DNA of 48,145 nucleotides from a virus (taxonomy: Duplodnaviria > Heunggongvirae > Uroviricota > Caudoviricetes): IMG/VR virus record IMGVR_UViG_2526164669_000027. The stretch is one strand, 5' to 3'. Positions 43,648 to 44,660 of this stretch are shown piece by piece. Below the pieces are notes generated by a model, which was not told where the DNA came from, ran no database searches, and saw nothing but the letters and a program-made list of their open reading frames with translations. The position numbers were made by a program, and so were the translations under genes. The stretch's first letter is position 1, and each line of letters opens with the position of its first letter.

Positions 43648-43836
43648 ATGAGACTGTATTTCACAATAGTAATTTTACTGGCAATTATCGCATGCGTTTA
43701 CGGATTACTTGTTCCGTTCCTTATATCCATGAAGGATACGATAGCAGTTATTTCTGGCTTTGCACTGGCGTTTCTGACCCCGCCCTGCATTTATGCCATT
43801 TACAAGGGTCTTTCTTTCACTAAGGATAAAAGATGA
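43648..43836 (+). CDS. small inner-membrane protein (62 aa, two predicted TM helices)
   Basis: MRLYFTIVILLAIIACVYGLLVPFLIS...FALAFLTPPCIYAIY; stop overlaps the next start. Confidence 0.55.
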   Translation: MRLYFTIVILLAIIACVYGLLVPFLISMKDTIAVISGFALAFLTPPCIYAIYKGLSFTKDKR

Positions 43837-44660
43837 AAAAAATTATTTTTGCTTTAGCCATTGTTCTGCCGACTATTGGCCTTGTCGGTTGCGATCGCGT
43901 TGAACCAGGTAATGTTGGCATCAAGGTAAATAAACTGGGCGACGACAAAGGCGTCGGTGAGGTGGTCGGTGTTGGTCGCTACTGGACTGGCTGGAATACT
44001 GAAGTTTATATCTTCCCCACCTTCAAACAAATGAAGACCTACGATGAACCGTTCAGTTTCCAGATGAGTGACGGTACAACCATCGGCTATCACATTGGCG
44101 TGGCCTACAAAGTTGATCCATCCAAAGTTACCACGGTGTTTCAGACCTACCGCAAAGGCGTGGATGACATTACAGACACCGACCTGCGCCAGAAGATCGC
44201 CGACGCACTCAACCGACTGGCCAGCAAAATGACCACTGACAAATTTATCGACGGCGGCAAGTCTGAGCTGCTGGATGAAGCTCTTAAAGACATTCAGGCA
44301 GAGATGACACCTATCGGTATTCAGGTAATGAGCCTCTCTTATGTAGGTAAACCGGAATACCCTCCAACCGTTATCGACAGCATTAACGCCAAAGTCACGG
44401 CAAACCAGAAAACCCTGCAGCGCGAACAGGAAGTCAAGCAACGTGAAGCGGAGGCCAACATGCTACGTGCGGAAGCTGCCGGACAGGCTGATGCCATTCG
44501 AACAAAAGCCCAGGCAGAAGCCGATGCTATTCGTTTACGCGGTGAAGCTCTGCGCCAGAACCCAGGCGTCATGGAGCTGGAAGCCATCAACAAGTGGAAC
44601 GGTACACTGCCGCAATACATGACCAGTGGTGCCAATACACCATTTATCCAGATTAAATAA
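43833..44660 (+). CDS. SPFH/band-7 (prohibitin/stomatin-like) domain lipoprotein (275 aa)
   Basis: Lipobox LVGC at residues 17-20; SPFH-like core and Ala/Glu/Arg-rich coiled C-terminal segment. Confidence 0.7.
   Translation: MKKIIFALAIVLPTIGLVGCDRVEPGNVGIKVNKLGDDKGVGEVVGVGRYWTGWNTEVYIFPTFKQMKTYDEPFSFQMSDGTTIGYHIGVAYKVDPSKVTTVFQTYRKGVDDITDTDLRQKIADALNRLASKMTTDKFIDGGKSELLDEALKDIQAEMTPIGIQVMSLSYVGKPEYPPTVIDSINAKVTANQKTLQREQEVKQREAEANMLRAEAAGQADAIRTKAQAEADAIRLRGEALRQNPGVMELEAINKWNGTLPQYMTSGANTPFIQIK

Follow-up and report, generated by a model that had tools for sequence, protein, structure and literature searches.

Why do phages carry SPFH membrane scaffolds? Scaffolds of this kind (HflK/C, prohibitin, stomatin, flotillin, erlin) are now known from their structures to be membrane cages. 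Several genome papers have raised the question for phages, and the role of the phage proteins has been called unclear (PMC13239085, PMC8540360, PMC10269572). The question is posed again by a gene pair at positions 43648–44660 of a 48,145-nucleotide stretch of viral DNA (IMG/VR record IMGVR_UViG_2526164669_000027), the whole of which is called the window here. The window is a phiP27-like lambdoid prophage, with 96.7% identity to phiP27 across 1.5 kb. An initial annotation, made from the sequence alone, described a 62-residue two-helix membrane protein coupled to a 275-residue SPFH/band-7 lipoprotein and suggested superinfection exclusion or a membrane-stress or abortive response as its role. 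Below, we argue that the small protein is the detached membrane-anchor domain of the unit and that the pair belongs to a module found in many kinds of phage.

Two overlapping genes

The gene for the small protein extends from 43648 to 43836 and that for the lipoprotein from 43833 to 44660, both on the + strand. The TGA stop codon of the small open reading frame (ORF), at 43834–43836, overlaps the ATG at 43833 (junction sequence aaaagATGAaaaaa), and an AAGGA Shine-Dalgarno sequence lies 9–13 nucleotides (nt) 5′ of that ATG, within the end of the small ORF. As read from the sequence, the segment 43820–43836 thus has the layout of a coupling junction, with a Shine-Dalgarno sequence and an ATGA stop/start overlap. 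The coordinates, two-helix protein and overlap of the initial annotation are all confirmed by the ORF list and the sequence.

The small protein, MRLYFTIVILLAIIACVYGLLVPFLISMKDTIAVISGFALAFLTPPCIYAIYKGLSFTKDKR, has hydrophobic stretches at about residues 3–26 and 32–53, linked by SMKDT, and a basic C-terminal tail, KGLSFTKDKR. The positive-inside rule predicts a hairpin in the inner membrane, with both ends in the cytoplasm and SMKDT as a short periplasmic loop. It matches PHROG 1130 “membrane protein” (E 3e-23); no Pfam family matches it at E ≤ 0.1.

The arrangement is kept in relatives. Among 84 related loci, 82 have the 4-nt overlap with an intact small ORF and one more has a 1-nt overlap; in the remaining one, the SPFH gene begins at the contig end. 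Both ORFs are intact in all 83 close loci where they could be examined, and similar stop/start overlaps are seen in phages P88, N4, phi1026b and phiCbK. In the allele set, the ratio of nonsynonymous to synonymous polymorphism (pN/pS) is 0.23 for the small ORF, 0.41 for the signal peptide of the lipoprotein and 0.022, at a pS of 0.24, for the mature SPFH protein. Given the constancy of the overlap, the low pN/pS and the PHROG 1130 match, both ORFs are real, constrained genes and not reading frames open by chance.

Purifying selection on the mature SPFH protein is very strong, at a housekeeping level. This protein is nearly identical in the lambdoid prophage, in the P2-like phage P88 and on a 90-kb phage-like plasmid; the signal peptide differs among these settings, and the small proteins of the phiP27 and P88 types are 25% identical. 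Constraint of this degree is typical of an oligomer with many interfaces.

The SPFH lipoprotein

The 275-residue protein matches Pfam PF01145 Band_7 over residues 22–208 (E 3e-31; 109.2 bits against a cut-off of 23.6) and PHROG 200 “lipoprotein” (E 3.9e-114). Residues 1–19 form a signal peptide, and the lipobox L17-V18-G19-C20 is followed by D21 at position +2. The lipobox LVGC and the SPFH-like core had been correctly recognized from the sequence. In an AlphaFold2 model with a predicted local distance difference test score (pLDDT) of 90.9, an SPFH1 domain (about residues 20–94) and an SPFH2 domain (about 96–175) are followed by helix CC1 (178–242), helix CC2 (244–254) and a flexible C-terminal tail with the sequence KWNGxLP. 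CC1 corresponds to the long helical tail of the initial annotation, described there as rich in Ala, Glu and Arg; in the model, it is a 65-residue helix rich in Ala, Gln, Arg and Glu. In 48 diverse homologues that were aligned, C20 (the lipobox Cys, fused forms included), G48, W255 and G257 are invariant, the last two belonging to a C-terminal KW(N/D)G-x-LP motif.

Foldseek comparison of the model gave HflC/HflK, prohibitin and erlin at E ~1e-13, stomatin at E ~1e-11, and flotillin and QmcA at E ~1e-8, with 13–20% identity across the best matches and a probability of 1.00 for HflK/C, prohibitin, erlin, stomatin and QmcA. Judged from the predicted fold, then, every one of the best structural matches is an SPFH protein that forms cages. 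In sequence searches, the PDB and NCBIfam yielded only weak similarity to HflK/HflC, and the NCBIfam matches (HflK/HflC/FloT) were all below threshold: the equivalogs TIGR01932 and TIGR01933 scored 25.9 and 23.1 bits against cut-offs of 134.4 and 159.4, respectively. These scores, together with the presence of one SPFH gene with a cleavable lipoprotein signal in place of a K/C paralogue pair, led us to reject the possibility that the protein is an HflK/C orthologue. The structural reading of the initial annotation, a two-helix membrane protein coupled to an SPFH lipoprotein with a long helical tail, in the early-left operon and outside the standard lambdoid functions, is supported by the tools used.

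On which side of the membrane does the protein lie? Asp at +2 is an established Lol-avoidance signal in E. coli. It is found in 101 of 105 close enterobacterial homologues having a detectable lipobox. Because of Asp+2, and because the lipobox helix of the fused forms described below must exit from inside to outside, we infer that the lipoprotein sits on the periplasmic (outer) face of the inner membrane. An estimate of oligomer size is available from a published regression that relates subunit number to CC1 length, y = 0.1782x + 10.22 (PMC12624060); for a CC1 of 65 residues, extrapolation gives 21.8, which suggests about 22 subunits.

The small protein as a detached anchor

A known kind of partner was considered for the small protein. 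Some SPFH genes are paired with NfeD genes; the 62-residue protein was rejected as an NfeD partner (PF01957 OB-fold, with or without a ClpP-like protease), having no Pfam match and being too short for an OB fold.

Its nature is indicated by single-chain relatives of the pair. A homologue search of 1.84 billion representative proteins returned 229 clusters at E < 1e-30, and about 20 of the best 150 cluster representatives are 330–390 residues long. These longer proteins begin with two additional helices; a third, at whose end the lipobox Cys stands, leads into the SPFH domain. A hidden Markov model (HMM) was built solely from the first 72 residues of 18 fused homologues. The small protein of the window scored 58.2 bits against it (E 1e-16), as compared with 50.4 bits for gp116 of Salmonella phage PVP-SE1, 42.0 for the two-helix ORF of the 90-kb phage-like plasmid, 36.0 for N4 gp19 and 31.9 for the P88 small protein; the best of 3000 composition-matched shuffles reached 9.5 bits. 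The small proteins and the fused N-termini share the motif (Y/F)G-x-x-x-P-x-L-(I/V)-S-A-x-(S/D)-T, which covers the end of helix 1 and the periplasmic loop.

The two forms were also compared at the level of loci. A search with a 10-sequence alignment gave 141 SPFH matches in 140 diverse loci, which included both genomes (Dyella, Rhodanobacter, Bacteroidota, Leptospirales, cyanobacteria, Pseudomonas and others) and viral contigs as long as 372 kb. A small partner ORF lies within 400 nt 5′ of the SPFH gene, mostly abutting or overlapping it, in 97 of the 141; four more matches are fused, and three are cut by a contig end. No conserved third gene was found across 139 diverse loci, where only lineage-specific neighbours occur (in lytic phages, for example, ribonucleotide reductase, ThyX and Sir2; in Dyella, BlaI/BlaR1). 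Since the small protein is homologous to the fused N-terminus, and since the small ORF is either adjacent or fused, the small protein is a detached membrane-anchor domain and the pair one unit in two pieces.

The lipobox Cys is kept at the end of the third helix in the fused forms (P0125, P0129, P0144, P0147 and others). Because of this, signal peptidase II could cut them internally, releasing the same two pieces that are encoded separately in the window. We know of no precedent for an internal signal peptidase II cut yielding two pieces. If it occurs, LspA-type cleavage of the single-chain homologues would employ the lipoprotein pathway in an unusual way, much as if they were polyproteins.

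Distribution of the pair

By tblastn, the SPFH protein is found in 383 of 50,697 phage records. Temperate carriers include phiP27 and Shiga toxin (Stx) phages, P88, the Burkholderia phages phi1026b and phi644-2, and the phage-plasmid RCS47. Lytic carriers include N4 and N4-like phages, PVP-SE1/rV5-like phages, Bruynogheviruses, phiCbK-like phages, jumbo phages, crAss-like phages and Lak phages. The gene is present in 388 of 5426 complete E. coli genomes (~7%), and Stx-converting and other pathogenic E. coli prophages commonly carry the pair. The overlapping pair also occurs in a prophage on a 439-kb plasmid and on the 90-kb phage-like plasmid, pEc-050-T20-MAC_3 (NZ_CP086483.1), where it lies amid tRNA genes. 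The pair is an old, widespread, mobile phage module and not an oddity of one prophage.

In no annotated phage examined does the pair lie beside lysis genes; its neighbours are early or replication genes. In N4, gp19/gp20 are found just past the phage RNA polymerase II genes gp15 and gp16; in PVP-SE1, gp116/gp118 lie amid ligase and exonuclease genes; in phi1026b, gp49/gp48 are within a long early operon; and in the P2-like P88, gp11/gp12 lie between cox and a replication gene.

Several variants deserve mention. In PVP-SE1 genes 116–118 (locus L227, 2645–3879), a 54-residue, non-membrane gene 117 is inserted between the two members and all three genes overlap, a lineage-specific variant. On pEc-050-T20-MAC_3, the 72-residue two-helix gene (locus L003, 3730–3948) lacks a RefSeq annotation, and a gene for the Thoeris anti-defence protein Tad2 lies ~700 nt downstream of the pair. 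About 10 Dyella species (loci L097, L143 and others; ~2000–5800) have a chromosomal, apparently non-prophage pair, divergent from genes for a BlaI repressor (Penicillinase_R) and a BlaR1 M56 sensor-protease. The Dyella neighbourhood hints at expression controlled by envelope signals and at an envelope-related role.

Setting in the prophage

The pair lies between the immunity region and xis/int, as the initial annotation described. A co-oriented CI-like repressor gene (40895–41626, + strand) is located ~2 kb upstream. Downstream of the pair are + strand genes for a DUF5406 protein (44701–45072; E 3.5e-22) and a DUF4222 protein (45104–45346; E 9e-15), followed by xis (45505–45741) and int (45797–47110). 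The phiP27 record begins L04, the equivalent of the DUF5406 gene, at an upstream GTG overlapping the SPFH gene; the ATG at 44701 agrees better with the Pfam model. The holin (26383–26712) and endolysin (25836–26378) genes form a separate lysis cassette on the other strand. The statement that the pair sits among AT-rich genes holds for the small ORF and its upstream spacer (GC 0.35–0.38) and fails for the SPFH gene, whose GC of 0.49–0.53 is the highest of any stretch in 41000–47150.

A promoter and terminator scan of 42400–45600 found no + strand terminator and fewer promoter-like sites than in shuffled sequences, none of them convincing as a promoter flanking the pair. For this reason, the pair reads as a member of the leftward early operon. 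The scan gave no evidence for a promoter or terminator of the pair's own, nor for a self-contained moron cassette.

Three further features were seen. An unannotated 35-residue ORF with a single hydrophobic helix (MKSNRELNRVKLILILATVLTLTEIIILFIALSVG; 43517–43624, + strand) lies just 5′ of the pair. Of 82 close loci, 56 have an intact copy with conservative substitutions; the ORF is missing from the P88 locus and the plasmid-borne copies and is therefore outside the universal module. A perfect GC-rich hairpin, GCCCGGC-GACCT-GCCGGGC (44668–44686, + strand), begins 8 nt past the SPFH stop codon. It is without a T-run and was not called a terminator by the scan; it may be an RNA-stability or processing element. 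Finally, no ORF matching the Stx A subunit in size is listed between the DNA methyltransferase gene (27807–28853) and the holin gene (window positions 26700–29300); judged by ORF sizes, the prophage may be an stx-negative phiP27 relative.

Relation to known systems

The genes have long been in databases (phiP27 since 2002, and N4) under uninformative or misleading names. The SPFH gene of the window is L05 of phiP27, the proteins being 99.6% identical; L05 carries the label “putative serine protease” or “lipoprotein”, and the phiP27 record does not annotate the small gene. The gene sets phiP27 L05, N4 gp19/gp20, P88 gp11/gp12, phi1026b gp49/gp48 and PVP-SE1 gp116/gp118 belong to the same family (PHROG 1130 plus PHROG 200), with the same gene order and overlap. 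We find no difference in kind among them; all are uncharacterised annotations.

HflK and HflC (PDB 7vhp, 7vhq, 7wi3, 9cz2) have the same SPFH1-SPFH2-CC1-CC2 fold with a periplasmic SPFH domain, and a similar cage size is expected. The phage lipoprotein, however, is only 15–20% identical to them and is encoded by one SPFH gene rather than a K/C pair. HflK and HflC use their own N-terminal helix, whereas the phage protein would be anchored by a lipid and a separate two-helix protein. HflK/C are FtsH modulators, whereas a link of the phage protein to FtsH is conjectural.

SPFH-NfeD operons (QmcA-YbbJ, PDB 8z5g; the Pyrococcus stomatin PH1511 and NfeD protease PH1510) resemble the phage pair in having two genes, a small multi-helix membrane partner and natural fusions. 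In contrast, the phage partner is 62 residues long and has neither the NfeD OB-fold nor a protease domain; moreover, the SPFH domain is cytoplasmic in those systems, whereas here it belongs to a lipoprotein and is predicted to be periplasmic. The “serine protease” label of L05 and its homologues may derive from the SPFH-NfeD family.

Spanins (Rz/Rz1) are likewise overlapping phage genes for an inner-membrane protein and a lipoprotein. Spanins, however, belong to the lysis cassette and have a small outer-membrane lipoprotein without an SPFH fold, whereas here the lipoprotein has 275 residues with Asp+2 and the genes lie in an early operon. A spanin reading was rejected on these properties of the lipoprotein and on the position of holin and endolysin, at 25836–26712 on the other strand.

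T4 Imm, HK97 gp15 and P22 SieA are small inner-membrane superinfection-exclusion proteins. The small protein resembles them as a phage-encoded small inner-membrane protein, a functional analogy only; it showed no sequence relationship to them, and none is known to act together with an SPFH protein.

A model for the pair

How might the two proteins work together? We propose that the two genes encode one two-piece early membrane scaffold, a periplasmic SPFH dome that serves in membrane protection or phage exclusion; taken as a whole, this is a proposal we regard as quite possible, though short of probable. The small protein would insert as a hairpin whose N- and C-termini are both cytoplasmic. 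The large protein would be exported, lipidated on Cys20 and held on the outer face of the inner membrane through Asp+2. Translational coupling would yield roughly equal amounts of the two, and the natural fusions likewise point to a ratio of about 1:1. The lipoprotein would then assemble into a closed dome of ~22 subunits above a patch of inner membrane; closure is expected because all solved SPFH proteins with a coiled-coil tail form a closed dome. Other SPFH proteins have N-terminal helices of their own that make a ring embedded in the membrane; here the two-helix partners would supply this ring. Since the module is probably transcribed with the early leftward operon, the dome would be made soon after infection or induction. 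A periplasm-facing cage of ~22 subunits on the inner membrane, present early in infection, is thus the most likely product of the pair.

What the cage is for is a guess. The dome might fence off or stabilise part of the inner membrane, either blocking the genomes of later-arriving phages or preventing premature membrane damage. Presence in strictly lytic phages and the early-operon position argue for a role during infection rather than one confined to the lysogen. Membrane protection or the exclusion of other phages is favoured because the module is accessory and highly mobile, occurs in both lytic and temperate phages and is located at the membrane crossed by incoming DNA.

Several points weigh against this proposal. 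The purpose assigned to the cage is guessed by analogy with small inner-membrane exclusion proteins, and neither protein, nor any of three neighbouring ORFs, matched a PADLOC-DB v2 defence model at E ≤ 1. The extreme sequence conservation is unlike that of many arms-race genes. As regards the two-piece unit, 37 of the 141 diverse SPFH matches have no detectable small partner, and the model of a natural fused homologue has a pLDDT of 60–69 in its membrane helices. As regards the anchor, N4 gp20 carries Tyr rather than Asp at +2, and the +2 residue is highly variable outside Enterobacterales; inner-membrane retention is therefore deduced mainly from the fused forms. No experimental study of a phage SPFH protein or of N4 gp20 was found in the literature searched.

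Other explanations of the pair

The resemblance to HflK/C raises the idea that the lipoprotein mimics or disturbs these proteins, changing FtsH degradation and with it the lysis–lysogeny choice or host physiology. We think this unlikely. The substrates affected would be phage or host proteins such as CII/CIII-type regulators, membrane proteins, LpxC and sigma-32. HflK and HflC are among the closest relatives in sequence and fold, and the topology, with a periplasmic SPFH domain, would be the same. The λ FtsH inhibitor cIII is likewise encoded in the leftward early operon. The idea has been proposed for phage SPFH proteins in genome papers (PMC8540360, PMC10269572). Yet the 15–20% identity and the scores far below the TIGR01932/01933 cut-offs make co-assembly with host HflK/C unlikely, and carriage by P2-like phages, a phage-like plasmid and strictly lytic phages extends the module to settings where a CII-type decision is inapplicable; presence of the SPFH protein in obligately lytic phages was noted earlier (PMC8540360). 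A different use of the lysogenic state is suggested by PM0222 of Pasteurella multocida, a prophage HflK/C-like SPFH protein that is reported to be associated with outer-membrane vesicles, to activate Toll-like receptors (TLR) 1/2 and to be needed for full virulence in mice (PMC9872710). By extension, a lipoprotein made by the lysogen could reach the surface or the vesicles and alter the interaction with an animal host. The pair is common in the pathogenic prophages listed above, and PHROG places the small protein in “moron, auxiliary metabolic gene and host takeover”. Nevertheless, PM0222 is no more than a candidate member of the phage family, and bacterial lipoproteins in general activate TLR2. 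The pair is without a promoter or terminator of its own inside a repressible early operon, the lipoprotein carries an inner-membrane retention signal, and many lytic carriers infect environmental bacteria. Lysogenic conversion is, in our estimate, improbable.

Size and topology of the small protein invite a further comparison, since with 62 residues, two helices, an N-in/C-in orientation and a basic C-terminus it is like a class II holin in size and topology and resembles pinholins. A holin-like or pore-forming hairpin restrained by the SPFH cage might time lysis or switch on abortive infection, and SPFH proteins do regulate channels and proteases elsewhere. However, the window has its own holin and endolysin in a separate cassette, the pair lies away from the lysis genes in every annotated phage examined, and the small protein matches no holin PHROG; the natural fusions and the conserved loop motif P-x-L-I/V-S-A-x-S/D-T suit a structural anchor better. 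A membrane toxin with its regulator thus has little to recommend it as the function of the pair. There is, lastly, the reading that the genes are an inert passenger, a decaying host-derived pair without phage function, for which the patchy distribution within phage groups could be cited (PMC8540360). Decay is hard to reconcile with ORFs intact in 83 of 83 loci, with pN/pS of 0.02 and 0.23, with the occurrence of the pair in 383 phage genomes and 388 of 5426 complete E. coli genomes, or with an architecture conserved across bacterial phyla. The conservation data effectively refute the inert-passenger reading, whose chances we put close to nil; the prospect that the pair is a host gene remnant, which the initial annotation had named as fatal to its own proposal, is excluded by the same conservation, the purifying selection and the 383 phage genomes.

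Significance

The homology of the small protein to the N-terminal two-helix domain of single-chain homologues, as detected by the HMM, appears to be new. The literature searched yielded no account of the two-helix partner or of how fused and split forms are related, and a 2026 survey of Pseudomonas SPFH proteins makes no mention of phages or lipoproteins. The phage version is a distinct SPFH subfamily, with a predicted lipid anchor and a dedicated, non-NfeD two-helix partner; it is a fused-or-split unit across bacterial phyla and has an early-operon location in lytic and temperate phages.

By way of speculation, and with considerable doubt, one may go further: many kinds of phage might install their own periplasm-facing, two-piece SPFH cage early, excluding competitors or neutralising host suicide defences that target the membrane, and the single-chain precursor might be cut by lipoprotein signal peptidase into the same pieces. 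As its carriers include ~7% of complete E. coli genomes, Stx phages and N4, a model phage, the module is directly testable by standard genetics. Should it prove to be an exclusion or membrane-protection device, it would represent a new mechanistic class in phage–phage and phage–host conflict.

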